DNA of 64,000 nucleotides from Candidatus Saccharimonadia bacterium (GTDB lineage: Bacteria > Patescibacteriota > Saccharimonadia > UBA4664), in assembly GCA_041743505.1 (NCBI GenBank), contig JBGTMQ010000020.1, positions 81,099-145,098 on the forward strand, written 5' to 3'. Under the pieces are notes generated by a model. It had not been told where the DNA came from. It ran no database searches and was given only the letters and a program-made list of their open reading frames with translations. Within the stretch, counting starts at the first letter, position 1; every line of letters begins with the position of its first letter. This document shows, one piece after another, positions 5,982 to 55,559 of this stretch. Position numbers and translations under genes: made by a program.

Positions 5982-6081
5982 TACTGCCCTCAGGGCAGTA
6001 CCATTACAACCACCTATGAATAATAACTACACTAAGCCAAAATATCAGCGCGGGCAATTTCTTACTGCCCTCAGTACAGTA
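5982..6081 (+). repeat. E2: 100-bp paired-palindrome element (arms 5982-6000 and 6063-6081, core CTACACTAAGCCA 6027-6039)
   Basis: Left arm tactgccctcagggcagta is a perfect 9+1+9 palindrome; right arm is tactgccctcagtacagta. Spacer lengths are 26 and 23 as in E1, but the spacer sequences differ. Confidence 0.85.
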
Positions 6082-6139
6082 GGTAGTAGGAGGGGAATGG
6101 CAAAACCCTGCCCAAAAAACCCCCACCCTCTACCGAAAA

Positions 6140-6168
6140 TTGACAATATGCAAAATTACAAGCATAAT
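6140..6168 (+). promoter_or_regulatory. sigma70-like promoter TTGACA-17-CATAAT
   Basis: 59 bp downstream of E2 and about 45 nt upstream of CDS 6213. Confidence 0.5.
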
Positions 6169-6212
6169 AGTATAGTCCGCCAAAATGCTCTCTCCCCACG
6201 AAGGGATCTACC

Positions 6213-6698
6213 ATGAGCATCAGAACCATCAGGCACACGTTCACTTGTCAGTCGAGCGGCCCTACAGCCGAGGAGATGGAGGGCGGGCTCGATGAACTCG
6301 AAGCTGCAGTTCAAGCCTACGTCGCACACCTTCCTGTTGGTACGTCCGTCAGCTACGGCCAGCTCGTACCCTGTCCGGCCTACAAGGCGGTCGTCTTAAC
6401 CCAAGCGGTCATCACCTGCCAGCCCACCCGAGGCCGCGGCGACCTACCACTCCGCACGGCCGAGTTTGCCTTCACTACCGGGGAACACTCTCACTGGTGG
6501 GCCGCCAAGCAGCGGGCCATGGCTGTAGACCGGTATTGGGCCAGCCTGCGCCAATGCGGTATTCCCGAGGCCGCCATCACAGTCGAGCGGATCCAAGAGT
6601 CTGACGGAAACGGCCGCCTCACCTGCATCGCTGTGGTAACGTATCGGAGCAAGTTCGAAGTCGACCCCCGCACCGGCGACCCCGTCAGTAAGGAGTAA
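6213..6698 (+). CDS. hypothetical protein
   Basis: 161 aa ORF downstream of the promoter, weak SD GAAGGGA. Followed 3 nt later by the SD-bearing CDS 6702, so probably an operon. Confidence 0.5.
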   Translation: MSIRTIRHTFTCQSSGPTAEEMEGGLDELEAAVQAYVAHLPVGTSVSYGQLVPCPAYKAVVLTQAVITCQPTRGRGDLPLRTAEFAFTTGEHSHWWAAKQRAMAVDRYWASLRQCGIPEAAITVERIQESDGNGRLTCIAVVTYRSKFEVDPRTGDPVSKE

Positions 6699-6701
6699 GA
6701 A

Positions 6702-6983
6702 ATGTCGGCCTTCGCAACCCTACTGGGCGTGCTGCTACTTATCGCCCTCCCCGTAGCCGCCAGCAGCCTCTTCTACCGCCCGGAATTAACGATCTGGCCG
6801 ATTCTCACCCTGTCTGGTCTCACGGGCTGGATGCTATCGCAAGCCTACCGCTTCGGTCCAAACTGGCTCGTTCCGGCCACCTACGTCTCCATCGGGCTCA
6901 GCCTGGCCGTCATGGTCTACCGGCTGGTACAACGGCTTCGCTCATACGATAAAGCGCCCGGGCACCAACCTCAGGACAACTAA
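6702..6983 (+). CDS. small membrane protein (2-3 TM)
   Basis: AAGGAG SD 7 nt upstream. Hydrophobic helices. Followed by a strong bidirectional terminator. Confidence 0.55.
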   Translation: MSAFATLLGVLLLIALPVAASSLFYRPELTIWPILTLSGLTGWMLSQAYRFGPNWLVPATYVSIGLSLAVMVYRLVQRLRSYDKAPGHQPQDN

Positions 6984-7003
6984 ACCCGTCCTGAAAAATC
7001 AAT

Positions 7004-7050
7004 AACGGTACTATCGGCAGCGTCAAAGCTGCCAATAGTACCGTTTTTCT
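7004..7050. terminator. bidirectional rho-independent terminator (17/18-bp stem, T-tracts on both strands)
   Basis: aacggtactatcggcagc-gtcaaa-gctgccaatagtaccgtt then tttttctt on the + strand, and attgattttt on the - strand. Sits between convergent CDS 6702-6983 and 7050-7664. Confidence 0.8.
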
Positions 7051-7664
7051 TATACCGGCAACCGCTCCCGGTATAGCCGCCAGATCGCTTCCAAAGTAGG
7101 CGCAAACCGCTCTGGCCGCGCCGGAATTCCGTCATCAAGCTCGCCGGCCGTCACCAGGGTAAGCCCGGCTATATCCGTACCGCTAAAAGTCGTCGGCGCC
7201 TCGCTCACCAAATAGTACGCACTGGCGAAAGTCTTATGCCCGTCAGCCAACGTTAGAAACTGGCTGCCCAAATACTGGGGCGCCGAATCTTCGTAATGAA
7301 TCTCTCTGGCCAGTGCCCGCCTGGCCGCCTCCACGGCCGTTTCGTTATGCCGGCGAATGGTCGCCACCGTGGCTCCCAGCCGCTCGGCGTACAAATTTGG
7401 CAGGTCTGCCCTGGCCGGAATCCGGCTGAGCACCACCTCCTTGGCCAAGGTTATGACCAAAACAAACACCGCATGGTATATATCCCGTGACTTATCAATG
7501 TCCTTTCGCCGCTTCTGTCCCACGACCGCTCCGGCCTCGCTTACGATGTCAACGAGCTGACCTGCATGTGCTGTGTCCATAGCTAGTAGCATACCAGCGC
7601 CGGCCGCAGCCCATGCTTGCATAAAACAAGCCGAAGCCGCAAAATATAATCCGCGCGGGCCCAC
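7050..7664 (-). CDS. hypothetical protein
   Basis: 204 aa ORF. No clear SD for any of three candidate starts (7664, 7622, 7592). Function not inferable. Confidence 0.4.
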   Translation of the reverse strand: MGPRGLYFAASACFMQAWAAAGAGMLLAMDTAHAGQLVDIVSEAGAVVGQKRRKDIDKSRDIYHAVFVLVITLAKEVVLSRIPARADLPNLYAERLGATVATIRRHNETAVEAARRALAREIHYEDSAPQYLGSQFLTLADGHKTFASAYYLVSEAPTTFSGTDIAGLTLVTAGELDDGIPARPERFAPTLEAIWRLYRERLPV

Positions 7665-7702
7665 CGCCGCGCCCGGTCTCCACTCAGGAGAGGAACCCTA
7701 GC

Positions 7703-8350
7703 ATGCTTGAAACATTGGCAGCTGAACTGGGCTTCGTTGAGACAGAAGCGTTACGCACCACTCGCACCAGGCTAGTAGCCGCCATTCTGTCCGGTGACTC
7801 GGCCGAAGGTCCCCGGCTCTGGTCACAGTTCGAGGAATTGGCCGAGTTCAGGTTATCCCGTTTGCCTGATGCCGATACCAGCGATGACCGTGCCCGTGCC
7901 CGCATCGGCATCAAGCTCATCAGGGCCCATATTTGGCAGTCAGCCGAGGAGCTGGTCTGTTATTTGCGGGAGCTGTTTGAAGCCCACAAACAGGCCGAGC
8001 ACCTAGTTCTGATCAATGTCGCCGCTACCTTGACCGGATTACTCAGGCGCTACGTTAGCTATGGGGAGTACTTCCAGGCCCAGGGACTGGATGAAGCTGC
8101 TATCGAGTATTACCTCCACGATGAGGATGATACGGGGCTCACTGACAAGCAGCGGGGGATACTCAACCTCCGGCTCACCGAGTGCTATCGGTCCTTGCTC
8201 ACCACACATCCTGGCGACACGGATCTCAAAGACCTCATGGATGACTCGCTCCAAAGCGCCCTCGTCTATCTGGACGGTGAGGTTGAGCAAGGCAAGGCCC
8301 AGCGTCTGCTCGACGAAGTATCCAAGGGTCGGAAAGAGCCGCACCCATGA
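7703..8350 (+). CDS. hypothetical helical protein
   Basis: AGGAGAGGA SD 6 nt upstream. 215 aa, acidic, no motifs. Confidence 0.5.
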   Translation: MLETLAAELGFVETEALRTTRTRLVAAILSGDSAEGPRLWSQFEELAEFRLSRLPDADTSDDRARARIGIKLIRAHIWQSAEELVCYLRELFEAHKQAEHLVLINVAATLTGLLRRYVSYGEYFQAQGLDEAAIEYYLHDEDDTGLTDKQRGILNLRLTECYRSLLTTHPGDTDLKDLMDDSLQSALVYLDGEVEQGKAQRLLDEVSKGRKEPHP

Positions 8351-8589
8351 TTCGACGGCCGGAGTACCCGCAACTGTTCGTCTGCAACGGTGTGCCCAAT
8401 CAGGCCACGGACTTTCAGGTATCAGTCGGCGACCTCACCTGGGTAACCATGCCTCATCTCAAGGCCGAGCGGCATCCCGGGTTTCTCATCCTGGAAGTCC
8501 CGGCCGTCACCGGCGCTACCAGAATCATCATCCATCCAGAGACTCTCGCCCGGCCAGTCCCACGGTCAACCATCACGCCATCATGTTGA
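8347..8589 (+). CDS. hypothetical protein (80 aa)
   Basis: ATGA overlap with the upstream CDS, which suggests translational coupling. Confidence 0.4.
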   Translation: MIRRPEYPQLFVCNGVPNQATDFQVSVGDLTWVTMPHLKAERHPGFLILEVPAVTGATRIIIHPETLARPVPRSTITPSC

Positions 8590-8638
8590 CCACCAGACCC
8601 CCAAAAACTTTAATAGTTGGCGGGGGTATTTTCTTTTA

Positions 8639-8666
8639 TTGCAATTACAAAGTTTTGTGGTATAAT
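8639..8666 (+). promoter_or_regulatory. sigma70-like promoter TTGCAA-16-TATAAT
   Basis: Near-consensus hexamers upstream of the CPBP protease gene, preceded by a T-rich terminator-like region at about 8596-8636. Confidence 0.55.
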
Positions 8667-8725
8667 AAACAATGCACCTTAATTAACCACATTCCCTTGG
8701 ATCCCACCACTGATTGGGGCGCTTT

Positions 8726-9502
8726 ATGGCAGGCACCATTAGGCGGCGTTACGGCTTGCCCATGGCAAGTACCGCTGGCATCTTCGAATTGTTCCTAGGA
8801 TCACTCGTCGTGGCGGGCTTCCTTTGGCTAGTCGCCCGCTCCTGGATGGAACTACCGTTCGACGCCCCCTGGCAAATTCGTGGTAGCATGACCGACGGCC
8901 TGGGCGATGTCTGGTTTATCTTCGTCTGGGGTACAGGCATCACGTTCTTGGTAGGGTTTCTTCAAATACTGGCGCGTCAGCCCCGGGACGAGGAGCCGGC
9001 CGAGATATTCCTCGTTGGATTATGGAAGAGCCTCAACGCCGGACTGTTCGAGGAAATGATTTTCCGGTGGCTGATGTTCATGTCCGTCATGGTGCTCCTC
9101 CAATTCCTCAACTTCATCACCTTCGGAATCGTCCGCTGGGTGTATGTCGAAGGCTTCATCCCGCTGGCAAACTGGCTGACTCTGGGCGCTCTTAGCCCGC
9201 AACTGCTTGGCGCCGGCTGGGTCCTAGCCGCCGCGGTTGTGATGTGTAACTGGAGATTCCAGACAGGCCATATCTATTTGGGGTGGTTCGGCTGGCTCAA
9301 TTCCTGGTTCCTCGGCATGGTCTTCTTCTGGCTCATGTTTAACTATGGGCTCTGGACCGCTATTGTCGCACACATTCTCTATGACGCTGGAATCTTCACC
9401 GTCGCAGCCATCGTTGCTACCATGCAGCCCCGGTATTCCCGCTACAATTCTATCCGCCAGATCGTTCGGAGTAGCAACCGGAGAAGATACCGGGCCAGCT
9501 GA
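8726..9502 (+). CDS. CPBP-family intramembrane glutamic endopeptidase (CAAX protease / Abi-like)
   Basis: Motifs EEMIFR (EExxxR), RFQTGH (FxxxH) and HILYD (HxxxD) sit within a polytopic membrane protein. Tool start TTG 8714; ATG 8726 preferred. Confidence 0.75.
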   Translation: MAGTIRRRYGLPMASTAGIFELFLGSLVVAGFLWLVARSWMELPFDAPWQIRGSMTDGLGDVWFIFVWGTGITFLVGFLQILARQPRDEEPAEIFLVGLWKSLNAGLFEEMIFRWLMFMSVMVLLQFLNFITFGIVRWVYVEGFIPLANWLTLGALSPQLLGAGWVLAAAVVMCNWRFQTGHIYLGWFGWLNSWFLGMVFFWLMFNYGLWTAIVAHILYDAGIFTVAAIVATMQPRYSRYNSIRQIVRSSNRRRYRAS

Positions 9503-9550
9503 TCGCTCTCCTGTCATCACCCTTCACTCGCGCTCAGGTAGGAGTTGAAA

Positions 9551-9781
9551 ATGTCCAACACAAGGCATCTGTCCATTGAGTACCGCGGCCGGGAGGTCAC
9601 CAATCCGTACGCCCGCGCCGCCGGCACAGTGGGCATCTTGTTGGCCTGTGTCTGTCTGCCGTTTATTGCGGTCTTGCATCCTTTGATGCTCGTCCTCGGT
9701 CGCCGCGGATTCGTCACGCACGAGTACGACAGTGCCACCACCACGATCACGATTTCAGGGGCCGGCTTCAAGAAGGACTAA
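9551..9781 (+). CDS. small membrane protein (76 aa)
   Basis: AGGAG SD 7 nt upstream of ATG 9551. One TM helix GTVGILLACVCLPFIAVLHPLMLVLG. Directly downstream of the CPBP protease. Confidence 0.45.
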   Translation: MSNTRHLSIEYRGREVTNPYARAAGTVGILLACVCLPFIAVLHPLMLVLGRRGFVTHEYDSATTTITISGAGFKKD

Positions 9782-9806
9782 CCACCAGCAATGTCCCGCC
9801 CGACAG

Positions 9807-9842
9807 CTCTGGGTATCGCAAGATACTCAGAGCATTCTTTTT
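9807..9842 (+). terminator. rho-independent terminator (11-bp stem with G.U wobble, GCAA loop, T-tract)
   Basis: ctctgggtatc-gcaa-gatactcagag followed by cattctttttta. Confidence 0.7.
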
Positions 9843-10020
9843 TAGGCCCTAATACTTGCATTACTTACCACCGACACCATCCCCGGCCATAACTGCAAAA
9901 TTGAGATGGTGCTCGCACCCCTCGCCACCAATGGCCGGCTAGCCATGAAGATTCTGTTTCACCTAGTCCCGCCGCAACCCCAGGCAACCCAGCCTGGGGT
10001 TCTACTTTCTCTGCCAAGGG

Positions 10021-10120
10021 GACTGAACTGAGGGCAGTACACAATTTGTCAGCACCGAATAAAAGCTGCGCCAAGCCAATACATGAAAGACTCAAACACC
10101 TTACTGCCCTCAGTTCAGTA
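10021..10120 (+). repeat. E3: 100-bp paired-palindrome element (arms 10021-10039 and 10102-10120, core ctgcgCCAAGCCA 10066-10078)
   Basis: Left arm gactgaactgagggcagta and right arm tactgccctcagttcagta are perfect inverted repeats. Spacers are 26 and 23 nt. Lies upstream of pgk. Confidence 0.85.
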
Positions 10121-10215
10121 GGTAGTGCCACGGAATTGTCCTCAGGTGAGCGAGGCCCGGGACCAAACATCAGCCATTATACCCGCCCACATTAGAAGAA
10201 TTCCCAGATTTCGCC

Positions 10216-10221
10216 TACAAT
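10216..10221 (+). promoter_or_regulatory. -10 box TACAAT 7 nt upstream of pgk ATG (probable leaderless transcript)
   Basis: Same geometry (TACAAT, 6-7 nt, ATG) is seen at alaS 47047-47052 and at CDS 41390. Confidence 0.4.
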
Positions 10222-10228
10222 AAAAACC

Positions 10229-11431
10229 ATGCACAAGAAAACCATCCGCGACATCGATGTTAAAGGTAAGCGCATCCTGGTCAGGGTTGATTACAACGTG
10301 CCCGTCAAAGACGGCGCCGTCACAGACGACTTCCGTATCCAGGCCAGCCTGCCCACCCTCCAGTACCTGCTGGAACAGGAATGCTCACTGGTATTAATGA
10401 GTCACCTGGGCGAACCCAAGGGCAAGCCGGATGCAACTCACAGCTTGCGGCCCGTAGCCGCCAAGGCCTCAGAGCTATTAAACCGGCCCATCGCTTTTCA
10501 CGAAGACTGCATTGGCGAAGCTGTCCTCAAGGCCGCCCGCGACCTGCGCCCCGGCGAGGTCATGATGCTCGAGAACGTTCGCTTTCACCAGCCAGAACTG
10601 GACAACGACCCCGGTTTCGCCCGCCAACTTGCCAATCTAGGCGACATCTACGTCAACGATGCCTTCGCCGTTGATCACCGCGATCAGGCCTCAGTCTCCG
10701 GGGTGGCCAAATACCTGCCGGCCGTAGCCGGACTTCTAGTCGAAAAAGAGGTCGAGCACATCCGGGGCGCGCTGGACAAACCAAACCGGCCGCTAGTAGC
10801 CATTATCGGCGGCGCCAAAGTCTCAACCAAAATTGAACTACTCAACAATCTCATTCCCAAGGTGGACGTACTCCTGCTCGGCGGCGCCATGGCCAACACC
10901 TTCTTGCTGGCCGGGGGCCGCGAAATCGGTAAAAGCCTGGCCGAACCGGATTACGTGAACACCGCCAAACAGTTAATAGAGCTAGCCAAGCGCGAAGACA
11001 CCCAGCTGTTCTTGCCGGAGGAGGTGGTTGTCAGCAAGAGCACCGAAACCCCCAAGCACCTGCGCACCGTCAAGGTCTCAGCCGTTGAGCCCGACGACTA
11101 CATCGTTGATGTATCGCCGGAGTTTCCCCGCCAACTCAGCCGGGCCGTCTATGAATTCTTGGACTTCGATAACAAGAGCACCGTTATCTGGAACGGCCCG
11201 CTCGGCCTCACCGAAGTACCCGAATTTGCGGCCGGTTCTCTGGCCATGGCCGGCGCCATCGTGGCGCTGCCGGGCGAGATCTCGGTCATCGGCGGCGGCG
11301 ACACAGCCGGCTTCGTCGACGAAGCCGGCCGCCACGACCAGTTCTCCTGGGTGTCTACCGGCGGCGGCGCCTCCCTGGCGCTCATGGCCGGCAAACAATT
11401 GCCCGGCATTGAGGCATTACAAGACAAATAA
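10229..11431 (+). CDS. pgk: phosphoglycerate kinase
   Basis: Full-length PGK signature (RVDYNVP, GGGDT, hinge and C-domain motifs), 400 aa. Confidence 0.93.
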   Translation: MHKKTIRDIDVKGKRILVRVDYNVPVKDGAVTDDFRIQASLPTLQYLLEQECSLVLMSHLGEPKGKPDATHSLRPVAAKASELLNRPIAFHEDCIGEAVLKAARDLRPGEVMMLENVRFHQPELDNDPGFARQLANLGDIYVNDAFAVDHRDQASVSGVAKYLPAVAGLLVEKEVEHIRGALDKPNRPLVAIIGGAKVSTKIELLNNLIPKVDVLLLGGAMANTFLLAGGREIGKSLAEPDYVNTAKQLIELAKREDTQLFLPEEVVVSKSTETPKHLRTVKVSAVEPDDYIVDVSPEFPRQLSRAVYEFLDFDNKSTVIWNGPLGLTEVPEFAAGSLAMAGAIVALPGEISVIGGGDTAGFVDEAGRHDQFSWVSTGGGASLALMAGKQLPGIEALQDK

Positions 11432-11432
11432 A

Positions 11433-12194
11433 TTATCTTGAAGCGTACTCTTGCATAAACGCCTCCATCTTGTCACTCACCTCACTTTTCATACCTTCTA
11501 AACGAGAATAAAAATCGTGAAGCTCTTCCTGCCATAACTCCCGGCGGTTCTCCCTCCAGTCGTTACTCGCCAGACTCTGATGTAAACGCCTAACGTCTCC
11601 TTCATCCATAATCCCCGAGAGCCCGTCTCTAACTACGTTTGGCGTATTCCCGATCCTCGTCTGTTGCGGATCGGCCAGGCGGGCCAACACCGCTTCAACA
11701 AGCACGGATCCCCGCTTGATATCGCGCATCTTCCAGCCCAGTCTTAGCAACGGCCCGCCCGCCTCGAGTAAGGCCATCATGCTCTCTGGGTCGCTCGGAT
11801 CATATCTGTCAGGGTCAATGTCGTATAACTTCTCATATAGTGCTGCGTCACCTGCAACCACGCCCTCGCGCTGTCGCTCAAGCGCCGCGATGTTTTTGGG
11901 CAACTCTTGTCGTGCGTCAGTTATTTTTTGCCGCTCGTCAGCCGTCTCTTCGGGTAACCGGTCAAGCTGACGCCGGGCTATGTCGATTTCCGTACTGAGC
12001 CCATACGCCTCGCTACTGCTCTCAACCGACTTAATTACCCGGGCCATAACCCTGTCCTTGGCCGGCTCCCCGTTTTCACCTTGCTCGGAGCCCGCGGCCT
12101 CTCCGGCCTCTGAGTGCAGTTCTTCGCTCAGCTGTTCTGGAGTGCGAGCCTTAAAATCCTCGCCGCCTGGTCCGCCTACCCGTTCACCGCTCAT
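11433..12194 (-). CDS. hypothetical acidic helical protein
   Basis: 253 aa ORF convergent with pgk (1-bp gap). No motifs. Confidence 0.5.
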   Translation of the reverse strand: MSGERVGGPGGEDFKARTPEQLSEELHSEAGEAAGSEQGENGEPAKDRVMARVIKSVESSSEAYGLSTEIDIARRQLDRLPEETADERQKITDARQELPKNIAALERQREGVVAGDAALYEKLYDIDPDRYDPSDPESMMALLEAGGPLLRLGWKMRDIKRGSVLVEAVLARLADPQQTRIGNTPNVVRDGLSGIMDEGDVRRLHQSLASNDWRENRRELWQEELHDFYSRLEGMKSEVSDKMEAFMQEYASR

Positions 12195-12294
12195 GGTCGT
12201 GATACGCCTTCCGTATATGAATCAATTATATAGCGAAATGTTTATTTATTTTGGGTCATCAAGCCCCCGGCACCGCCATTTCAATGTGAATACC

Positions 12295-12411
12295 TACTGC
12301 CCTCAGGGCAGTAATTCGGGGCCTTCAAAGCGCGTATCCAATTTTGGCTCTGTATAGGATATAAAACACTCATTCCGTAGTAAAATACACAACACTGCCC
12401 TCAGTTCAGTA
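12295..12411 (-). repeat. E4: 117-bp variant of the paired-palindrome element (arms 12295-12313 and 12393-12411, reverse-oriented core tggctctgtatag 12345-12357)
   Basis: Left arm tactgccctcagggcagta (palindromic) and right arm cactgccctcagttcagta. Core is the reverse complement of the family core; spacers are longer (31 and 35 nt). Confidence 0.75.
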
Positions 12412-12474
12412 CCCTATCCAGCTGTAAAGCAAAACCATCCTAGTCGGCCGTACCAGAGCATAAAACGGCCAACT

Positions 12475-12504
12475 TTGCGTTGGACCCACCATAAGCGCTA
12501 CAAT
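12475..12504 (+). promoter_or_regulatory. sigma70-like promoter with -10 TACAAT inside the 16-mer CATAAGCGCTACAATG
   Basis: -10 at 12499-12504, candidate -35 TTGCGT. The identical 16-mer recurs at the ftsA promoter (52623-52638). Confidence 0.5.
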
Positions 12505-12532
12505 GGCAATGAAGTAAAGGGTCTACACAGAC

Positions 12533-13288
12533 ATGACACGATTAATCGTTGGCAACTGGAAAATGAACCTCAATCCGGGCGAGGCCAGCGTGCTAGTGCA
12601 CCGGCTCCAAAACAAACTGTCAGTTGACCCTCAAACCGAAGTCGTTATCTGCCCGCCGTTTATCGACATTTATCCTATTTCCAAAGAGCTCGACAACAAG
12701 AAACTCAAACTCGGCAGTCAGAACATCCATTACCTGGACCAAGGCGCCTTTACCGGCGAAATATCGCCCGCCATGCTCAAAGGTATGGCCAGCTACTCCA
12801 TCATCGGCCATTCTGAGCGCCGGGCCATGGGCGAGGACGACAAACTCATCGCCAAAAAAATGGCCGCAGCGCTACGCAACGACATCATCCCAATCCTCTG
12901 TGTCGGCGAAAGCCTCCACGACCGCGAGCATAACCTAACCAAAAAGGTTGTCACCGATCAGCTCACCGCTGACCTCGCCCAACTCACAGCCGCCGATGTC
13001 GCTCAAATCGTCATTGCCTACGAACCGGTCTGGGCCATCGGCTCGCACTCGCCGGCCACCCCCGGTCAAATCAAGCCGGTTATCCGCACCATCCGCCACA
13101 CCGTCGAGGAGCTCTACGGTGAACAAGGCGGCGCCAACGTCCGCATCCTCTACGGCGCCAGCGTCGAGCCCGAATTTGTCTCTGCCATTCTACACATCGA
13201 CGGCGTCGACGGTCTGCTGGTGGGCGGCGCTAGCCTCAATTACGAAGAGTTTGCCGCCATTGTCAAGGCCGCCCAAAGCCTCAAATAG
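12533..13288 (+). CDS. tpiA: triosephosphate isomerase
   Basis: GNWKMN, AYEPVWAIGS and other TIM motifs; 251 aa. Confidence 0.92.
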   Translation: MTRLIVGNWKMNLNPGEASVLVHRLQNKLSVDPQTEVVICPPFIDIYPISKELDNKKLKLGSQNIHYLDQGAFTGEISPAMLKGMASYSIIGHSERRAMGEDDKLIAKKMAAALRNDIIPILCVGESLHDREHNLTKKVVTDQLTADLAQLTAADVAQIVIAYEPVWAIGSHSPATPGQIKPVIRTIRHTVEELYGEQGGANVRILYGASVEPEFVSAILHIDGVDGLLVGGASLNYEEFAAIVKAAQSLK

Positions 13289-22859: not shown

Positions 22860-23378
22860 ATGCGTCATTTCGTCTCTGGCAGCACCTATCGTGAGCTAAT
22901 GCGGCGACTCGGCCGGCTTCAGTCCGAACTTGCCAATCCCGACGGCAGCCGCATCGATCCCGTATTACTCATCCAGACTTTGGACGTCTTGTTATCGGGC
23001 AAAGTATTCGAGCTAACAATTACTCCTAAGCCGGTAGAGGATGAATTTCTTTACCTGAGCTTACCCCCGGAAGTCTTAACGACCGACATTCAGATGCTGG
23101 GGCTCAAAACCACTACTTACAATATCCTGAAGCGTCACGGCATTGATACTATTGAGGATTTGCTTGAGCGGTCGGCGGCCGATTTACTAGATATAGCCTA
23201 TTTCGGCCCCAGGCTGCTGGAGGAGCTAAACCGCGCGCTTGCTGTACATGGCTGGCATCTATCCCGTCACGACGATCCTGATCTGGCGCCGCCGTCAGGC
23301 GACGAGTGGATAACATTTAACCGCTATAGCGGCGCACCGCGACGCGTTCTCAAGAGTCGTCTGCACAGCCGGAAGTAA
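22860..23378 (+). CDS. RpoA alpha-CTD-like (HhH) domain protein, paralog 1
   Basis: LYLSLPPEVLTTDIQMLGLKTTTYNILKRHGIDTIEDLLERSAADLLDIAYFGPRLLEELNRAL aligns with the RNA polymerase alpha C-terminal domain pattern L.LS.R..N.L....I.T..DL......EL......G..S..E. Followed by GWHLSRH...APPSGDEW. CGGAGG SD upstream. Confidence 0.6.
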   Translation: MRHFVSGSTYRELMRRLGRLQSELANPDGSRIDPVLLIQTLDVLLSGKVFELTITPKPVEDEFLYLSLPPEVLTTDIQMLGLKTTTYNILKRHGIDTIEDLLERSAADLLDIAYFGPRLLEELNRALAVHGWHLSRHDDPDLAPPSGDEWITFNRYSGAPRRVLKSRLHSRK

Positions 23379-23398: not shown

Positions 23399-24181
23399 GT
23401 GGCCCGCTATGCTACCGCTACACCCAACCAGCGGCTTGAAGCGAGGCGTCTATGGATCGAAATCTATGCCGAGCTAACTAACCCTCAGGGCAGCTCACTC
23501 GATCCTCAGATGGTTCTCGAGGCGCTACAGTCGATTCAGTCACTGATTCGTTCAAGCGATAACCATGAGTCAGCCAAGTATCTTGACAAGGCCGCAGCTG
23601 AGGTCGGGCCGCTCGAAAATCCTGACGATTTTCTTTACTTAACCCTGCCCCGCGAGGTTCTCGATCAACCAGTCAACACGCTTAAGCTAACGGAGCGGCC
23701 ACTCAATTGCTTGCACCGGGAGAATATTAGTACCGTCGATGACCTTCTGCAGCGTTCTGGGCCCGAGCTGTTAGAGATACGAAACTTTGGAGCAGTATCT
23801 TTAAGAGAAGTAACAACCCGGCTTGATGAACGGGGTTGGCACTTGTCCACCCATGGCCAGGGATTAGCTCCTCCGCCGGGTGACCAGTGGGTTAAGTACC
23901 AAGACTGGCTCTTTCTCCGCAGCCGTTTCATCCGGCTACCCGTTGATAAGATCCTCCGCTGGAATTCGCAGATCATCGCCTCGCTCAAGGAGCTTGGAAT
24001 TGTAACAGTCGGTCAGTTGGTCTCGTTGACGGACGTCGAAGTGCTACGGCTGCCCTGGGACGAAAAGCCGGCCACCTACGTCTGGAAGTTCGAGAAAATA
24101 ACCGGCTTCGATGCGCTCGAGATAATTAATGCGTCACTTCAAGACTGCGGCCTGTCCCTGACCCAAGAAACAGATCGGTAA
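23399..24181 (+). CDS. RpoA alpha-CTD-like domain protein, paralog 2 (two tandem HhH repeats)
   Basis: Same alpha-CTD-like motif and GWHLSTH...APPPGDQW as paralog 1, plus a second degenerate repeat. N-terminus is also paralogous to 22860. GTG start with GAGAGG SD. Confidence 0.6.
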   Translation: MARYATATPNQRLEARRLWIEIYAELTNPQGSSLDPQMVLEALQSIQSLIRSSDNHESAKYLDKAAAEVGPLENPDDFLYLTLPREVLDQPVNTLKLTERPLNCLHRENISTVDDLLQRSGPELLEIRNFGAVSLREVTTRLDERGWHLSTHGQGLAPPPGDQWVKYQDWLFLRSRFIRLPVDKILRWNSQIIASLKELGIVTVGQLVSLTDVEVLRLPWDEKPATYVWKFEKITGFDALEIINASLQDCGLSLTQETDR

Positions 24182-28588: not shown

Positions 28589-29173
28589 ATGCCTAATGAT
28601 TTTCTCTTCCTGACGCTACCAACCGACGAGCTTGAACGCCCGCTCAAAACACTGGAACTGCCGACCCGAGCGTATCACTGCCTGATGCGCGAGGAAGATA
28701 TCAGCACCGTAGGGGATTTGCTGGCCTGCTCAGAGTCTGAGCTAATCGACATTCGCATCATGGGGTCTAGTTTGGTTGACCAAGTCAAGATCAAGCTGGC
28801 AAAGCGCGGCTGGCATCTGTCGCCTCACGACCAGAGCACCGAACCGCCGCCGGGGGATTCATGGGTCCAGGTGCCACATGGGCAATACCTAAACAAGCAG
28901 CGCCAGGTCCTCCAGAGCCGGGTGCGTAGAATATCGCTTGATCGCTACAGCTGCCCCTACCCCGGCTACCCTAACACCCCAGTGGATGCTATCCGCTCGG
29001 TCATTAACCTGTCGACGCTCGGTGATCTGGCCGCCCTTACCGAAGTTAAGGTCCGGGCGGCCGTCGAAGAGGCCACCCGTAAGCCTCACTTCGAGCAGTT
29101 CGACATCGCCAAGTCCGTAGACTGGATCAAGCAGAAATTGACCGAAGTCGGGCTGAAATTGGCCCAACCGTAA
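28589..29173 (+). CDS. RpoA alpha-CTD-like domain protein, paralog 3
   Basis: DFLFLTLPTDELERPLKTLELPTRAYHCLMREEDISTVGDLLACSESELIDIRIMGSSL plus GWHLSPH...EPPPGDSW. Second HhH-like repeat. GAGGGA SD. Confidence 0.6.
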   Translation: MPNDFLFLTLPTDELERPLKTLELPTRAYHCLMREEDISTVGDLLACSESELIDIRIMGSSLVDQVKIKLAKRGWHLSPHDQSTEPPPGDSWVQVPHGQYLNKQRQVLQSRVRRISLDRYSCPYPGYPNTPVDAIRSVINLSTLGDLAALTEVKVRAAVEEATRKPHFEQFDIAKSVDWIKQKLTEVGLKLAQP

Positions 29174-46717: not shown

Positions 46718-47043
46718 CAGGATACCTTCCTTGAGGGGGCCGGCACATAACGTCGGCTATTGTATCATACTTTTTGACAAAATTGACAAAAGCTGTTCCC
46801 TTAACCCTCCTGCACAAACACTGAGAGCTATGGCTAGTTCATACTCAGTGGGTACTAGAAAAAGTCTAATCATTGAATTATCATCAAAAATAACTTATAG
46901 TTTTATCCTACACTAAGCCAAAAAAGCTACCATTTTATCACTCGCTCGTAGCTTACTAGAAAAATTCTAGTGCTCTGTCCTCAGGCATAGCCGTCCGTGC
47001 GTCTTCATCTTCTACTCAAAACCATCGAGAATCTCGCTTAATT

Positions 47044-47059: not shown

Positions 47060-49060
47060 ATGACCACCCAAGAAATCCGCTCAGCTTATCTAAAATTCTT
47101 CGCTAACCGCGGCCACGTTATCATCCCGCGGGCCAATCTCGTGCCCAAAGAAGACGCCACTACGCTTTTTACCGGCTCCGGCATGCAACCCATGATTCCA
47201 TACCTACTCGGCGCCAAACACCCCAGCGGCACCCGCCTGACCGATTCGCAAGTCTGCTTTCGCGCCGATGACATCGACGAAGTCGGCGACAATCGCCATA
47301 CCACCTCGTTTGAGATGCTCGGCAACTGGAGCCTCGGCGACTACTTTAAAAAAGAGCAAATCCACTGGATATTCGAGTTTCTAACTGAAGTCGTCAAGCT
47401 CGACCCGAATAAACTCTACGTCACCGCCTTTATTGGTGCCCCTGGGTACGACATTCCCAAAGACACTGAAGCCGCCGAGATCTGGCAGGAGCTCTTTAGA
47501 AAACAAGGCATTGACGCCGATGTCGCCGACCTTGGCTCAGAGGCAGACGGCTACAACCGCGGCATGAAAGCTGGCGAACGCATCTTCTATTACGATGGTT
47601 CCAAAAACTGGTGGAGCCGCAACGGTGGTCCCGAAACCACTCCGGTCGGCGACCCGTGTGGTCCCGACTCGGAAATGTTCTTCCGCCTCGACGACTCCCC
47701 GCATACTGACGATGAACAGCGCCAGTGGGGCGAGCATTGTCACCCCAACTGCGACTGCGGCCGGTTTATCGAAATCGGCAACAATGTCTTTATGGCCTAT
47801 CGCAAAGAAGCCGAAGGCAGATTTGTATTGCTCGAAAAGCCCAATATCGATCATGGCGCCGGTCTCGAACGGCTGGCCGCCGCAGCTATCAACGACCCGG
47901 ATATGTTCAAAATTAGCCTGCTCTGGCCCATCATCAAACAGCTCGAGCGCCTATCAGGCAAAGACTACGCCGCCGAGCAGCTGCCCATGCGTATCATCGC
48001 CGACCACCTGCGGGCCGCCACCTGGCTGGCCGTCGACGGCGTAGTCCCAAGTAACACGGCCCAAGGCTATGTCATGCGCCGCTTCATCCGCCGCGCCATC
48101 CGCCAGGCCCATGCCCTGGGTCTACGCGACAACTTTGTGCACGAGGTTATCCCCGTCATTGCCGACAGCTACCGGGATGCCTTTCCCGAAGTTACCGAGC
48201 GCGAAGTTGAGGTGATTAATATTCTTGTAATTGAAGAGAAACAATTTCGTTCCACGCTCGAGCGCGGTTTAAGGGAGTTTGAAAAACAATCGTTAGTCCT
48301 GCAAAAAGATGATGGTACATATAGCAGTCAAATACCGGCAGCTACTAAGCCACTTGAGCCAGGTGTCACTCCAAAGTCTTCTGGCTATTTAGGTAAATTC
48401 AGTGTTTTAACTGGCGACATGATGTTTAAACTCTTCGATACCCATGGATTTCCTGTTGAGCTCTCGAAAGAAGAGGCACAACGACGCGGTATGAAAATTG
48501 CGACAGATGCGGATAAAATCTATACAGAACTAATGAACGAGCAGCGCATTCGCTCCCGTACCGCCACCACCGGCCAATTCAAGGGCGGCCTGGCCGATCA
48601 CTCGGAGATGAGCACCAAATATCACACCGCCACGCATCTCATGTACAAAGCCTTGCGCATCGTGCTCGGCGATCACGTTATCCAGCGCGGATCAAACATC
48701 ACGCCGGAGCGGCTGCGCTTCGACTTTAGCCACTCCGGCAAAATGACGCCGGAGCAAATTAAACATGTCGAAGATATCGTCAACGCTCAAATCGGCAAAG
48801 ATTGGCCGATGGGCTTCCGCGAAGAGAAAACAGCCGGCGTACTCGGCAAAGTTCTCGGCGCCTTCGGTGACCGTTACGGCGACTTGGTCAAAATCTACAC
48901 TGTCGGTGACCCGGACGGCGAACATTACTCCCGCGAAATCTGCGGTGGCCCGCACGTGGACCACACCGGAGTCCTGGCTGAAGGTGGCAAACGGTTCAGG
49001 ATCAAGAAAGAAGAATCCAGCTCCGCCGGCGTACGGCGCATCAAAGCCGTACTTGAGTAG
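47060..49060 (+). CDS. alaS: alanine--tRNA ligase (short form, catalytic + editing domains, no C-Ala domain)
   Basis: HTTSFEMLGNWSLGDYFK, GAGLERL, editing-domain HTATHL and CGGPHV motifs. 666 aa versus about 870 typical. Confidence 0.9.
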   Translation: MTTQEIRSAYLKFFANRGHVIIPRANLVPKEDATTLFTGSGMQPMIPYLLGAKHPSGTRLTDSQVCFRADDIDEVGDNRHTTSFEMLGNWSLGDYFKKEQIHWIFEFLTEVVKLDPNKLYVTAFIGAPGYDIPKDTEAAEIWQELFRKQGIDADVADLGSEADGYNRGMKAGERIFYYDGSKNWWSRNGGPETTPVGDPCGPDSEMFFRLDDSPHTDDEQRQWGEHCHPNCDCGRFIEIGNNVFMAYRKEAEGRFVLLEKPNIDHGAGLERLAAAAINDPDMFKISLLWPIIKQLERLSGKDYAAEQLPMRIIADHLRAATWLAVDGVVPSNTAQGYVMRRFIRRAIRQAHALGLRDNFVHEVIPVIADSYRDAFPEVTEREVEVINILVIEEKQFRSTLERGLREFEKQSLVLQKDDGTYSSQIPAATKPLEPGVTPKSSGYLGKFSVLTGDMMFKLFDTHGFPVELSKEEAQRRGMKIATDADKIYTELMNEQRIRSRTATTGQFKGGLADHSEMSTKYHTATHLMYKALRIVLGDHVIQRGSNITPERLRFDFSHSGKMTPEQIKHVEDIVNAQIGKDWPMGFREEKTAGVLGKVLGAFGDRYGDLVKIYTVGDPDGEHYSREICGGPHVDHTGVLAEGGKRFRIKKEESSSAGVRRIKAVLE

Positions 49061-49941: not shown

Positions 49942-50667
49942 ATGCTAACTGAAGTGAAACTAAAGTACAAACGCTTACTCCTTAAATTATCCGGCGAGCA
50001 ATTAGCCGGCGGTCATAAAAGCGGCATCGACCCGGCCATCGTTGCCTGGATAGCCAAAGAAGTTAAGAAAGCTACCGACGCCGGCGCCGAAATTATCATG
50101 TTGGCCGGCGGTGGCAATATCGTTCGCGGCAAAGAAGTCGCCGGCAACGGCATCCAGCTCATAACCGCTCACAACATGGGCATGCTCTCAGGCCTCATGA
50201 ACGGCATGGCGGTAGCAGATGTACTTACCGCCAATGGCATCTCGGCCCAATTACTAACAAATATCCGAGCCGACCAGGTAGCCGATCAATACACCGAGCG
50301 CCGGGCGGTGCATCATCTAAACAAAGGCCGCGTAGTCGTTATCGGCGGCGGCATCGGCCGGCCGTACTTCACCCACGATACCGCTGCCGTCAATCTGGCT
50401 CTGGAACTCCAATGCGACATCGTCTGCAAAATAACTAAAGTCGACGGCGTCTACGACCGTGACCCCACCAAGCACGCCGGTGCCAAGAAATTCGACGAGG
50501 TTTCATTTCAGCATGCCGTCGAAAACACCAATATCGCCGTCATGGACAAGGCGGCGCTAGGTTTGGCCATGGAACATAAGATGCCGGTGATAATCTTTGA
50601 TCTCCACAACGAGGACAACATCCGCCGCGTCGCCTCGGGCGAAGCCGTCGGCACGCTCATTTCATAG
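49942..50667 (+). CDS. pyrH: UMP kinase family protein (divergent paralog)
   Basis: LLLKLSGEQLAG, GGGNIVRG and DTAAV motifs of the amino-acid-kinase/UMPK fold. More divergent from E. coli PyrH than the convergent copy. Confidence 0.8.
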   Translation: MLTEVKLKYKRLLLKLSGEQLAGGHKSGIDPAIVAWIAKEVKKATDAGAEIIMLAGGGNIVRGKEVAGNGIQLITAHNMGMLSGLMNGMAVADVLTANGISAQLLTNIRADQVADQYTERRAVHHLNKGRVVVIGGGIGRPYFTHDTAAVNLALELQCDIVCKITKVDGVYDRDPTKHAGAKKFDEVSFQHAVENTNIAVMDKAALGLAMEHKMPVIIFDLHNEDNIRRVASGEAVGTLIS

Positions 50668-50725: not shown

Positions 50726-51517
50726 CTAAACTAAATGCCGGAGGGTATGTACGATTGTACCGACTCCTTCGCCTCGCACAGCCCGGGCAATATTGCCCTC
50801 GGTGAGCAGGTTAAAAACGATGATCGGCAGCTTGTTGTCCATGCAAAGGCTGAAGGCCGTTGCATCTGCAACCTTAAGGTCGCGTTCAAGCACCTCACGA
50901 TGCGTGATCCATGGAATCAATTCAGCGGTGGGGTCTGTCCTGGGATCAGCCGTGTACACGCCGTCGACAGCTTTGCCCATCAGCAGAATCTCGCAGCCAA
51001 TTTCCAGCGCTCTCTGGGCGGCAGTTGTATCCGTCGAGAAGTAGGGCATACTAACGCCGGCGCCAAAAATCACCACCCGCCCTTTTTCGAGGTGTCGGAT
51101 AGCCCGGCGGGGAATGTACGCCTCAGCCACTTGGCTCATCGTAATGGCGGTCTGCACACGGGTCTCAACGCCATACTCGCGCTCCAGAAAATCCTGTAAC
51201 GCCAGACTATTCATCACTGTGCCAAGCATACCCATGTAGTCAGCCCTGGCGCGGTCCATGCCGGTATCTTGCAACTGCCGCCCGCGGAAAAAGTTACCAC
51301 CGCCAATGACGATCGCCATCTCAATGCCGGTAGCCGCCACCTCGGCTATTTGCCGCGCCACCATGTTTACTACGTCCGGATCAACCCCGACGCTACCGCC
51401 ACCAAACATTTCACCGCCGAGCTTCAGCATCACGCGGCGATAACGTGGTGGCTGGAATTCTTTGCCAAGCCGGTCCATCGTTGCACAACCGGCCGGGGGA
51501 TCAGTCAAATCGGTCAT
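50726..51517 (-). CDS. pyrH: UMP kinase (canonical bacterial type)
   Basis: [43 protein letters not shown] and [11 protein letters not shown] closely follow the E. coli PyrH pattern. AAGGG SD upstream of ATG 51517. Confidence 0.8.
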
Positions 51518-51670: not shown

Positions 51671-52297
51671 ATGAACCAGCGTGGCAGAGCGCCAATTTTG
51701 CTAATTGTAATTGCAGCGACCTTAGGTGTTGGGCTGGCGGCTTCAGCCTACCTGAATTACAACCAATACCAAAAATCCAGCCAAATCCAACGCGAGCTAA
51801 AGGGACAAATCACTGACCTGCGCTATCAACTGCGCATCGATCAGAAGCAGGCAGCAGCCTCACCGTCACCTTCGCCCGGAATTACGGCCGGTAACGCCGC
51901 CGCTCCCGCACCAGCCGCTTCGCCCGGTGTGCTCGGTGCCCAAACCGTCGACCTAACCCAGCTCGGTGTCAAGCTAACGGTCGGCGACCCGATCGCTGAT
52001 CTAACCTACGATCATGAACTGGTCGGCTCGCTGCAGGTGGCGAACCTAACCACCTCAAGCCTGGTGGCCAAATATCCCGCCTGTAAACCCGGTACGGCTC
52101 TGGGAATGGTTGTGCGCCGGCCGCTCAATTCAAAACCCTCGAGCTCCTCTACCAAATTCCTCAAAACATTCGGCAAATTTAATTTCTACTATGTCCCTTC
52201 AACCGGCAATTGTGGCGGTACTCCGGCCGGCCAAGCAGCCGTCACAGCAGCCAAGTCCGCCCTGGTAAACACCGTGTTGCCAACACTAAGCCAATAG
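51671..52297 (+). CDS. membrane-anchored hypothetical protein
   Basis: N-terminal TM helix, coiled-coil-like segment, Pro/Ala-rich linker. 208 aa. Confidence 0.5.
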   Translation: MNQRGRAPILLIVIAATLGVGLAASAYLNYNQYQKSSQIQRELKGQITDLRYQLRIDQKQAAASPSPSPGITAGNAAAPAPAASPGVLGAQTVDLTQLGVKLTVGDPIADLTYDHELVGSLQVANLTTSSLVAKYPACKPGTALGMVVRRPLNSKPSSSSTKFLKTFGKFNFYYVPSTGNCGGTPAGQAAVTAAKSALVNTVLPTLSQ

Positions 52298-52622: not shown

Positions 52623-52638
52623 CATAAGCGCTACAATG
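52623..52638 (+). promoter_or_regulatory. promoter -10 region with 16-mer CATAAGCGCTACAATG (identical to the tpiA promoter)
   Basis: -10 TACAAT at 52632-52637, 22 nt upstream of the ftsA ATG. Confidence 0.5.
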
Positions 52639-54445: not shown

Positions 54446-54861
54446 TGCCACGCGAGCTAGGCTTTACGGGCCTTTATGGTAACGACGCAGACATCAAAGC
54501 CAAGTTTCTTGAGCTCAATCACCAGTCTCCATTCCGGCTTGGTTTCGAAGCTATTTACACGTTTCCCAGAAGTGCCAGCAAGCCGATATGACCTTAAGCT
54601 GGCCGTGAATGGCTATCTCCGGTCATCTTACCGCGGCATTCCAATCTACGGAACATCACCGGCCAGGTGGCTGAATACGACTAAAATGAAGACGCTGTTA
54701 CTGAGGACCAAAGAAGACTTACTTGGACGTCCATCTCCGCCAAATAATTAACTAGTCGTGAGTTCAAAAACCTCTATAGCATGAAAGTGAGGGCTGTATA
54801 ATAATTCATGCCATGGCTATCTTCTCTAAGGGCTCGGTACTGATCTAACTTATAAGGTACC

Positions 54862-54961
54862 TACTCTCCTGAGGAGAGCGTTTGGTTTTTGTTGGCCTAT
54901 AAATCACTATAACAAGCCATTATTCAATGGTAACTGGCAGCTTACTCTCCCCAGGAGAGTA
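54862..54961 (+). repeat. E5: 100-bp paired-palindrome element, arm-sequence variant (arms 54862-54880 and 54943-54961, core CAAGCCA 54913-54919)
   Basis: Arms tactctcctgaggagagcg and tactctccccaggagagta (half-site TACTCTCC instead of TACTGCCC). Arm-to-core distance 34 and core-to-arm distance 24 are identical to E1-E3. Confidence 0.75.
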
Positions 54962-55130
54962 CCTATTGAAAAGTCTAGCCGGTATCCTGTGAGACTCGTG
55001 GAGCTGGAGCCGAATTCTTACGGTCACCAGGGGCCAGGTTTTAGAATTCACGGAACTAGACATTTACAAATCAGCAATAATATGCTATTATAATAGATGT
55101 CCGCTCTTCTACAACTCAGAAGGAACCGAA

Positions 55131-55559
55131 ATGTCTCGGCGCACCAAGCTCCTGCTCGTCGGAATTGCTGCGGCCCTAATCATCGTTAGTGGCCTGGCGT
55201 ACATCCTTACGCGCGGAAACGACCGACCGGCACCTCAGGCCAACGGCGCCAATGCCGGGGTAATGTCGCCGGCTAGTCCTGTCCCAAGCGTTAGCACAAC
55301 GCAGCCAGCTAGTCCAATCATTAATGTCGTCGACTGCATCGGTAACGGTGCCACCTGCGAAGGCAGCCTAAACGGCTCGGATGGTGAGGTTCGTGTCACC
55401 AACAACACCAGTCACAACTGGCGGCTCAAGCTCACTTGTAACCACAGTGGTGACCAATGGAGCAGCTTAAATCAGCCATCAGCTGGCACAGTAACATCAC
55501 AGGCAAGCTGTAAGCATGGCGCACCAGCCCTCTACTGGAATGTCATATCACAGCCATAG
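55131..55559 (+). CDS. membrane-anchored Cys-containing small secreted protein
   Basis: AAGGAA SD. N-terminal TM helix. 142 aa. Terminator 55589-55622 follows. Confidence 0.5.
   Translation: MSRRTKLLLVGIAAALIIVSGLAYILTRGNDRPAPQANGANAGVMSPASPVPSVSTTQPASPIINVVDCIGNGATCEGSLNGSDGEVRVTNNTSHNWRLKLTCNHSGDQWSSLNQPSAGTVTSQASCKHGAPALYWNVISQP

Follow-up and report, generated by a model that had tools for sequence, protein, structure and literature searches.

Two questions are raised by this locus: whether a stretch of intergenic DNA that shares its layout with several sequences nearby, and departs from them in all four of its repeated parts at once, belongs to the same family, and what could make such parts change together. 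The stretch, which we call E5, lies at positions 54862-54961 of a 64-kb window (the whole piece of DNA analyzed here) from an uncultured Saccharibacterium. We surveyed the window together with 3.8 kb adjoining it on the left and recovered six copies of the element, E1-E6, each of which is described on its own strand; the family is known from this one genome. The host assignment follows from homologs of PGK, the product of pgk, which bear names such as Candidatus Saccharimonadia, the nearest being only 72% identical. The window is bacterial chromosome, carrying pyk, pgk, tpiA, uvrD, alaS, and ftsA, and showed no similarity to phage. Recognition of the element by a phage single-subunit RNA polymerase, or its identity as an N4-type hairpin promoter, was rejected on these two grounds. 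E5 is a genuine, sequence-switched copy of an intergenic repeat ∼100 bp long; the element is new and lineage-specific, within a kind, the small palindromic intergenic repeats, that is already known.

Anatomy of E5 and its family

All six copies follow one plan, in which two mirror-image, quasi-palindromic 19-bp boxes (the arms) surround an asymmetric 13-bp core to form a module of ∼100-120 bp. Each module thus holds four equivalent 8-bp half-sites of the form TACT-NNNN, and the core, CT-N6-AGCCA, lies about four helical turns from the center of each box. In E5, arm 1 (54862-54880, + strand) reads TACTCTCC-TGA-GGAGAGCG, a quasi-palindrome followed by a T-rich run; the core (54907-54919, +) reads CTATAACAAGCCA, against a family consensus of CTACACTAAGCCA; and arm 2 (54943-54961, +) reads TACTCTCC-CCA-GGAGAGTA, a perfect 8+3+8 palindrome. 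The spacers around the 13-nt core are 26 and 23 nt in E1, E2, E3, and E5 alike, with 45 nt from the start of arm 1 to the start of the core and 36 nt from there to the start of arm 2. A preliminary description of E5 had stated that it keeps the geometry of the element, with distances of 34 and 24 nt, and these values agree with ours when counted to and from the AAGCCA of the core.

An independent measure of this resemblance came from a covariance model (R2) trained on E1-E3 alone, so that the scores of E4, E5, and E6 are not circular. The model detected E5 on the + strand at 43.1 bits (E=4e-8), with the training copies themselves scoring 102-106 bits; the + strand of E5 was favored by 8 bits because of the core. 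The arm pattern of E5, TACTCTCCNNNGGAGAGTA, allowing up to three mismatches, matched just the two E5 arms in 64 kb, where 0.08 matches were expected, and the E1-type pattern TACTGCCCNNNGGGCAGTA gave eight matches in the window, arranged as four pairs, against 0.28 expected.

Conservation was confined to the arms and the core. Among E1, E2, E3, and E5, identity was 0.74-0.81 in the arms and 0.79 in the core, compared with values near chance in the spacers (0.31-0.33) and outer flanks (0.24-0.31). When the six intergenic regions were compared all against all, arms and cores were likewise the only sequence in common, and we found no conserved sequence outside them among the copies. Core residues C1, T2, and A9-G-C-C-A13 are unchanged in all six copies; E1 and E2 have the consensus core and E3 has CTGCGCCAAGCCA. 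The contrast between near-random spacers and preserved arms and core argues that these parts are still constrained, whether by a copying machinery or by a later function in the host.

The arms start 81 bp apart in four copies; in the remaining two the interval is 98 and 101 bp. The extra length is split between the two sides of the core (+10/+10 nt in E6, +9/+8 nt in E4), that is, about one helical turn on each side, which points to the geometry of double-stranded DNA rather than to a folded single strand.

Concerted change of the half-sites

The four half-sites of E5 read, in order, TACTCTCC, CGCTCTCC, TACTCTCC, and TACTCTCC. All fit (T/C)(A/G)CTCTCC in place of TACTGCCC, and one of the four deviates additionally at positions 1-2. 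The GC-to-CT change that had been reported for every half-site is borne out, with C5 T6 present in 4/4 half-sites of E5 as against G5 C6 in the inner half-sites of E1-E4. These inner half-sites match TACTGCCC exactly in six cases out of eight and are one base off in the other two; the outer ones are mostly TACTGAAC (5/8). Three arm types can therefore be told apart: TACTGCCC/TACTGAAC in E1-E4, TACTCTCC in E5, and TACTAGAA in E6.

The same behavior was seen across the family. Position 5 of the half-site is G in 16/16 instances from E1-E4, C in 4/4 from E5, and A in 4/4 from E6; taking positions 5-8 together, GCCC has become CTCC in all four half-sites of E5 and AGAA in all four of E6. At positions 5-8, half-sites of one element agree with an identity of 0.78 and those of different elements with 0.46, whereas the outer TACT (positions 1-4) is equally similar within (0.84) and between (0.85) elements. 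A permutation test gave p <5e-5 for this concertedness overall and 1.5e-4 with one representative per arm type. The proposal that independent mutation of a single operator would not yield a fourfold change is supported, and the TACTAGAA half-sites of E6 repeat what E5 does.

Both kinds of symmetry claimed for E5, palindromy within an arm and complementarity between arms, were recovered. Arm 1 pairs internally at 6/8 positions by Watson-Crick pairs plus one G-T pair, arm 2 at 8/8, and arm 1 agrees with the reverse complement of arm 2 at 16/19 positions. The two arms of E1, like those of E3, are complementary to one another at 18/19 positions, and across E1-E5 the 19-bp ends are 15-18/19 complementary. 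This mirror symmetry extends to positions that are themselves asymmetric within an arm (outer AAC vs. inner CCC; centers TGA vs. TCA), giving the arms a resemblance to terminal inverted repeats. In five of the eight E1-E4 arms, two positions of the local hairpin are unpaired (A·G, C·T, or C·A); the local hairpin is therefore not what is conserved at positions 6-7.

Does this amount to selection on a structure, as first proposed? Over the six copies, a model of local hairpins had 82.3% of cells paired and a long-range model joining arm 1 to arm 2 had 86.8%, each with seven pairs changed on both sides, and both exceeded all 500 shuffles, a control that related sequences can exceed without having any structure. 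The proposal was borne out in part only. The covariation is real but is drawn from only two independent switches, E5 and E6, and it does not discriminate between base pairing and double-stranded DNA with four equivalent half-sites for a protein. The step from pairing to selection on structure is weakened by this, by the A·G-type mismatches in E1-type arms, by the one-turn spacer steps, by the equally good fit of four protein half-sites, and by template switching or gene conversion, which could also produce the pattern.

Template switching and gene conversion would make E5 a drifted, homogenized copy and would call for no structural selection: a change in one half-site would have been copied to its palindromic partner and then to the other arm. 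Template-switch correction of quasi-palindromes is an established process, and two arms look corrected in this way, arm 1 of E2 and the gene-proximal arm of E4 (12295-12313), both perfect palindromes where the sister copies have AAC/GGG. Bases were altered in blocks of two to four adjacent positions, and only two independent switches need to be explained. Each switch would nevertheless take three conversions, one after another and all in one direction; E5 and E6 have kept core and phasing exactly, which argues for continued constraint on these copies; and the process explains how a change spreads within an element, not why arms are conserved against spacers of 30% identity. We regard this origin of the concerted change as possible, though doubtful.

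A role in RNA had also been suggested. Arm 2 would then act as a 5' leader hairpin, or the 19-bp stem between the arms as a processing site (e.g., for RNase III), with compensatory changes in the stem. Consistent with this, the long-range stem, besides having the higher paired fraction and the seven two-sided changes given above, is the predicted minimum-energy fold in 5/6 copies (z-scores -1.5 to -5.7), and transcribed Correia elements are substrates of RNase III (PMC2649163). An extended -10 sequence, TGTATAAT, lies at 54795-54802, ∼60 nt upstream of E5 arm 1, which is itself terminator-like (stem 54864-54878, then CGTTTGGTTT), the only one of the twelve arms with a T run; together with the terminator-like sequence at 54864-54888, it could give a short transcript of ∼80 nt ending in E5 arm 1. 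No Rfam family matched at the gathering score, and with the threshold relaxed to E up to 5 the elements still had no match. In E2 and E3 a predicted terminator precedes arm 1 by 10-25 nt, and one is seen by eye in E1, which makes it unlikely that both arms share one transcript. Spacer steps of ∼10 bp would be meaningless for an RNA loop, the caution about shuffle controls applies here as well, and the 62-82-nt interior has no conserved pairing, and hence no continuous hairpin, in the folds of the six copies, though the arms pair. An RNA role is, in our judgment, very improbable.

Genomic placement and origin of the family

Every copy follows the end of the upstream gene, and beyond it the next gene has a sigma-70-like promoter of its own; the intergenic regions are unusually long (340-740 bp). 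All six are in 5' regions, those of pyk, a 161-aa open reading frame (ORF), pgk, the tpiA divergent region, a 142-aa ORF, and alaS, at a density of about one per 11 kb of readable sequence. Between an element and the proximal promoter or start codon there are anywhere from 88 to 228 nt. For E5, the promoter (55063-55091, +; TTTACA-17-TATTAT, TG-extended) stands between the element and the ORF at 55131-55559, which encodes a membrane-anchored protein of 142 aa; E5 is therefore not the proximal promoter of the downstream gene. The element is a self-contained unit and not a proximal promoter.

These positions would suit a cis-regulatory module of the host, in which two operators of a dimeric protein, 81 bp apart center to center, are looped around the core, and in which the core is a weak promoter or the site of a bending protein. 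Such a module would control or insulate pyk, pgk, tpiA or its divergent neighbor, alaS, and the two ORFs, with E5 and E6 read by paralogs of the protein or by the same protein with altered affinity. Several results agree with this: the four equivalent half-sites of each element change together, the outer TACT is common to all three arm types (∼0.85 within and between elements), the spacer variants keep helical phase, and conservation is limited to arms and core. The six of six copies in 5' regions, the orientation toward the gene of the four that are informative, the glycolytic function of three downstream genes, and an A/T-rich -10-like sequence just upstream of the core (in E6 a complete sigma-70-like site, which ends 6 nt short of the core) add to the case. 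The GalR-HU system, in which a pair of operators loops DNA around a bending protein, offers a parallel, with palindromic operators of equivalent half-sites flanking a central site at helically phased distances. It differs in that the same geometry occurs here at many unrelated genes, with three operator types in one small genome, a very short 81-bp loop, and no regulator found in the window: a Pfam scan of ∼60 window ORFs gave no helix-turn-helix or other regulator domain and no candidate binding protein. The three arm types would demand three specificities in a genome that is expected to be small, an identical multipart geometry at unrelated promoters is hard to evolve without copying, and relatives lack the sites before the same genes. 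The distance from element to promoter or start is variable, as noted; the -10-like hexamer of the core lacks the key final T in 3/6 copies; and no consistent + strand promoter occurs inside E1-E5. A regulatory module of this type therefore seems to us rather unlikely.

Comparison with relatives was made through PGK homologs of 69%-72% identity, in whose loci pyk, pgk, and tpiA form a tight operon or are separated by few insertions. The operon is tight in one relative (locus L089, 5262-8678; a second locus compared was L091, 231-4316), whereas in our window (3193-13288) the three genes are split by about ten ORFs without a Pfam match, and each glycolytic gene is preceded by its own terminator, element, and promoter. 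The homolog check covered one ORF only, that downstream of E5, and returned none. In a further relative (L088), LigD-Ku genes lie between pgk and tpiA, and the locus is therefore an insertion hot spot in several lineages. The element was absent from ∼67 kb of six related Saccharibacteria. The locus of the closest relative (L096; PGK 72%) has one sequence, GAGGG-TACTCC-G-GGAGTA-GGAGTAG, that bears a weak, non-significant resemblance to an E5-type box with flanks. It also carries a gene for an 80-aa XRE-family helix-turn-helix protein (609-851) directly upstream of pgk, preceded by a perfect 22-bp palindrome, ATAGTGACATATATGTCACTAT (511-532), which is likely its operator.

Wider searches gave little. 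A PGK search of genome contigs returned only distant phyla (≤50% identity); the core-plus-arm pattern had five matches in JGI metagenomes, all at chance level; and in viral contigs two of the arm patterns had no match and the E5 pattern had one, nothing convincing. Logan contigs of the same strain were identical to the window through E1-E4 and E6. Outside the elements, contigs L100 and L101 were 99.7%-99.8% identical to window positions 6081-9531, with one gap and a few substitutions; judged by the length difference the gap is a 15-nt indel, so that some variation exists in the population.

Taken together with the anatomy, we tentatively favor, with somewhat less than even confidence, a lineage-specific repeat spread by copying, similar in kind to the Correia elements of Neisseria, the BIMEs of enterobacteria, or the REPINs of Pseudomonas, with boxes and core that would be protein-recognition sites and with E5 and E6 as arm-variant subfamilies. 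An identical multipart geometry in unrelated intergenic regions suggests copied units that decayed outside their functional parts, and fits less well with operators evolved independently. The resemblance of the arms to terminal inverted repeats, the absence from ∼67 kb of relatives, which indicates a lineage-specific distribution, and the split operon with an element before each glycolytic gene all favor spread by copying. So do the flanks of E5. Immediately outside the arms, the left flank of E1-E4 is AGGG and the right flank GGTAG; E5, read directly, has TACC (54858-54861) and CCTAT (54962-54966), which are the family flanks reverse-complemented, that is, inverted relative to the core of E5 when compared with E1-E4. 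Such an arrangement is expected of insertion in either orientation into a preferred target.

In mechanistic terms, a protein would bind the boxes, either as an oligomer reading four like half-sites or as an enzyme reading the stems as hairpins, and a second factor would bind or bend the core and so bring the two boxes together. To judge from the two spacer variants, E4 and E6, boxes and core would face the same way on double-stranded DNA bent at the core. The resulting complex might be the substrate through which the element was once copied, or a co-opted barrier or regulatory site before genes. E5 and E6 would then have switched positions 5-8 together, retaining the outer TACT, the core, and the helical phasing.

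Among known repeats, the Correia elements of Neisseria (CREE/NEMIS) come close. They have 26-bp inverted repeats, a characteristic core, and two size classes; a site for IHF is proposed to aid synapsis of the ends; and the majority are found 5' of genes, in some cases separated from the gene by a sigma-70 promoter (PMC2649163). The likeness lies in a length of ∼100-155 bp, intergenic location, inverted repeats around an oriented core, discrete length classes, a central site for a host factor, position 5' of genes, and end symmetry that varies between copies (PMC2649163). There is no sequence similarity, and the host is a Saccharibacterium; the ends here are 8+3+8 palindromes with four like half-sites rather than simple 26-bp inverted repeats, interiors are unconserved save for the 13-bp core, and there is no TA duplication, possibly a GG instead. 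The same dinucleotide is indeed found on both sides in 5/6 copies (GG/GG in E1-E4, CC/CC in E5), and since it is identical across E1-E4 it may be part of the motif, not a target duplication. TA occurs within every half-site, the inner ones included, and is therefore not a target duplication.

The BIME-1 sequences, in which a host-factor site lies between two repetitive extragenic palindromes (REPs), are a second point of comparison. In Pseudomonas fluorescens, REP pairs are inverted and 71 or 110 bp apart, with a less conserved spacer of kept length (PMC3116915, PMC3733652), and multiple co-resident families have been reported (PMC3733652). Here, the twelve 19-bp quasi-palindromes form six inverted pairs at 81 bp (four), 98 bp, and 101 bp. 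Short extragenic palindromes in inverted pairs, compensatory two-sided changes, and several families are common to the REP, BIME, and REPIN sequences and to ours (PMC3116915, PMC3733652). A GTAG arises as CAGTA|GG at one end of 5/6 elements, E1-E5; it overlaps the stem, with three of its four bases inside it, and is 3' of the palindrome, whereas the tag of REPs (GTAG or CGTC) is unpaired (PMC3733652). Further differences are a spacer without a continuous hairpin, a strongly conserved asymmetric core, no RAYT gene among the window ORFs, and a count of six known copies, from 64 kb plus 3.8 kb, where >100 per genome are typical. Compared with miniature inverted-repeat transposable elements, the family shows neither similarity over its whole length, given the near-chance spacer identity, nor presence/absence differences among the same-strain contigs.

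A number of observations weigh against spread by copying. The 64-kb window and the adjoining 3.8 kb gave only six copies; the ∼60 window ORFs contain no transposase, RAYT/Y1, integrase, or recombinase domain; no empty site or insertion polymorphism was observed among the contigs compared, which are of the same strain; the interior lacks the continuous hairpin typical of REPINs; and the 2-bp flanking repeat could be part of a recognized motif. Near-random spacers imply that any spread was ancient, so that arms and core have been kept otherwise than by recent copying, which favors a host function. In co-directional intergenic regions, 4/4 copies point with the genes (chance ∼1 in 16, one-sided), a shared orientation that hints at a gene-related role.

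The behavior of E5 in independent assemblies bears on recombination. Two Logan assemblies made from this strain are both interrupted here: their left contigs stop within E5 arm 1, at 54875, their right contigs begin at 54990, and 54876-54989 is left unassembled in both samples. Contigs of the same samples cross E2, E3, E4, and E6; E1 is crossed by a contig of one sample only. A further contig, from one sample, begins at 2968, 3 nt past E1 arm 2. The break at E5 could reflect heterogeneity in the population or an artifact of sequencing or coverage.

One possibility suggested by such a break is that the arms are core-type sites of a recombinase, forming a cassette boundary like the integron attC site (59-base element) or a tiny invertible switch with an oriented core. 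attC sites consist of two imperfectly palindromic simple sites of ∼19-25 bp, mutually inverted around a variable center, with a total length of 57-141 bp. The architecture here is parallel, with paired inverted simple sites, structure kept over sequence, and sites that differ from one another yet match on their two sides. The outer half-sites of E1, E3, and E4 (ACTGAAC...GTTCAGT) are one mismatch from the RYYYAAC...GTTRRRY of attC, E1-E4 divide the split glycolytic region into blocks, and both the inverted core of E5 relative to its flanks and the breaks at E5 would fit. Against this, nothing close to the RYYYAAC/GTTRRRY motif occurs beyond E1, E3, and a single end of E4, and the AAC/GTT triplets, near-invariant in attC, are absent from E2, E5, and E6; the center here holds a conserved core at fixed spacing; no IntI integrase or attI site was found in the window (Pfam scans), nor any other recombinase among the ∼60 ORFs; and the cassettes would hold housekeeping genes with promoters and terminators of their own. 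A segment of 62-81 bp would be very short for inversion, all invertible segments known to us being longer; E4 is inverted together with its flanks and is therefore not an internal flip; and assembly breaks have other possible causes. We consider recombinase sites of this kind quite unlikely.

A further reading holds that the boxes are read as structures (paired hairpins or a small cruciform, with TACT as the foot and a co-varying upper stem) by a Y1/HUH-type enzyme or recombinase of the lineage, the core serving to position the complex. The inversion of the E5 core relative to its flanks and the assembly breaks at E5 hint at this but are not proof, and we think it unlikely. If true, no structure-read element system of this kind would have been described before in the Candidate Phyla Radiation, and the element could be a still-active copier or a very small invertible or excisable switch before genes.

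The genomes of Saccharibacteria are small and streamlined, and repeated non-coding modules would not be expected to be frequent in them; this family occupies long intergenic regions before central-metabolism genes of a broken ancestral operon. If mobile or recombinogenic, it may help explain the rearrangement of such genomes and the way in which split operons recover expression signals; if made of protein-binding regulatory modules, it would be a lineage-specific system of control or insulation in a group whose gene regulation is almost unstudied. Three arm types, with strict fourfold agreement inside each element, provide a clear test on a full genome.

The remaining copies and neighboring sequences

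E1 (2866-2965, +; arms TACTGAACTGAGGGCAGTA and TGCTGCCCTCAGTTCAGTA, core 2911-2923) lies upstream of the pyruvate kinase gene pyk (3193-4635). E2 (5982-6081, +; arms TACTGCCCTCAGGGCAGTA and TACTGCCCTCAGTACAGTA, core 6027-6039) is upstream of the 161-aa ORF at 6213-6698 and sits between a terminator (5928-5958) and a promoter-like site (6140-6168). E3 (10021-10120, +; arms GACTGAACTGAGGGCAGTA and TACTGCCCTCAGTTCAGTA, core 10066-10078) precedes pgk (10229-11431), with a terminator at 9976-10001 immediately before it.

E4 (12295-12411, - strand) is an inverted copy with the core CTATACAGAGCCA at 12345-12357 and spacers of 35 and 31 nt, placed in the divergent region between a minus-strand ORF (11433-12194) and tpiA (12533-13288); covariance models scored it at 34.5 and 32.1 bits on the minus strand, the latter under R2. 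E6 (46853-46972, +; arms TACTAGAAAAAGTCTAATC at 46853-46871 and TACTAGAAAAATTCTAGTG at 46954-46972) lies upstream of alaS (47060-49060), with the exact consensus core at 46908-46920 and spacers of 36 and 33 nt. Its match to R2 was weak and borderline (14.6 bits, E=0.1), and E6 is probably a sixth copy, with the third arm type. The window yielded no further copies with the covariance search filters off, and the 3.8 kb to the left yielded none.

Two isolated near-cores were noted. An armless core-like motif, CAACACTAAGCCA (52281-52293, +), lies directly upstream of a strong extended -10, TGCTATAAT, for the ORF at 52335; in its longer form, CAACACTAAGCCAATAGTT, it is nearly identical to the E1 core plus the bases after it. 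The second, CTATACTAAGGCA at 33913, overlaps another extended -10.

Several known identities were tried and rejected. The core does not behave as a sigma-70 -10 element, having the key final T in 3/6 copies and no conserved -35; a convincing sigma-70 site near the core was seen only in E6 (TTGAAT-17-TATAGT), where it lies upstream of the core. Inspected by eye, the elements did not consistently fit sigma-54 or extracytoplasmic-function promoter patterns, the IHF consensus, or a T-box, and Rfam had no match. The box ends resemble the Escherichia coli SOS box; the gammaproteobacterial consensus is TACTG-(TA)5-CAGTA, with CTG-N10-CAG. A LexA SOS box was rejected: our boxes have CTG-N9-CAG and are 19 rather than 20 bp long, E5 and E6 lack CTG, and where genes for DNA repair would be expected the downstream genes are glycolytic, alaS, or of no assigned function. 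A DNA uptake sequence was also dismissed, the half-site 8-mers being confined to the elements except for one stray TACTGAAC.

Other features of the window are of separate interest. In three proteins of 172, 260, and 194 aa (22860-23378, 23399-24181, and 28589-29173), the C-terminal domain of RNA polymerase alpha (PF03118) stands alone, without the N-terminal assembly domain; two of the proteins are tandem paralogs. Proteins of this type could bind A/T-rich DNA or transcription factors. A 16-mer with a TACAAT -10, CATAAGCGCTACAATG, is repeated exactly at 12490-12505, before tpiA, and at 52623-52638, before the ftsA-like gene, and a related sequence, GCATAAGCGCT, precedes pyk in the tight-operon relative (L089, ∼5180-5195); these may represent a conserved promoter type of the lineage. 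Upstream of a 92-aa ORF at 2523, an imperfect hairpin (2335-2406) has 35-nt arms that are 77% complementary with 2 nt between them; its only Rfam matches were sub-threshold ones to microRNA precursor models, reflecting the hairpin shape.

Two adjoining, convergent genes of the amino-acid-kinase family, UMP-kinase-like, occupy 49942-50667 (+) and 50726-51517 (-), the first assigned by precomputed annotation and the second by Pfam. Further tandem paralog pairs were seen at 20468/20878, 24306/25189, and 33147/33978.

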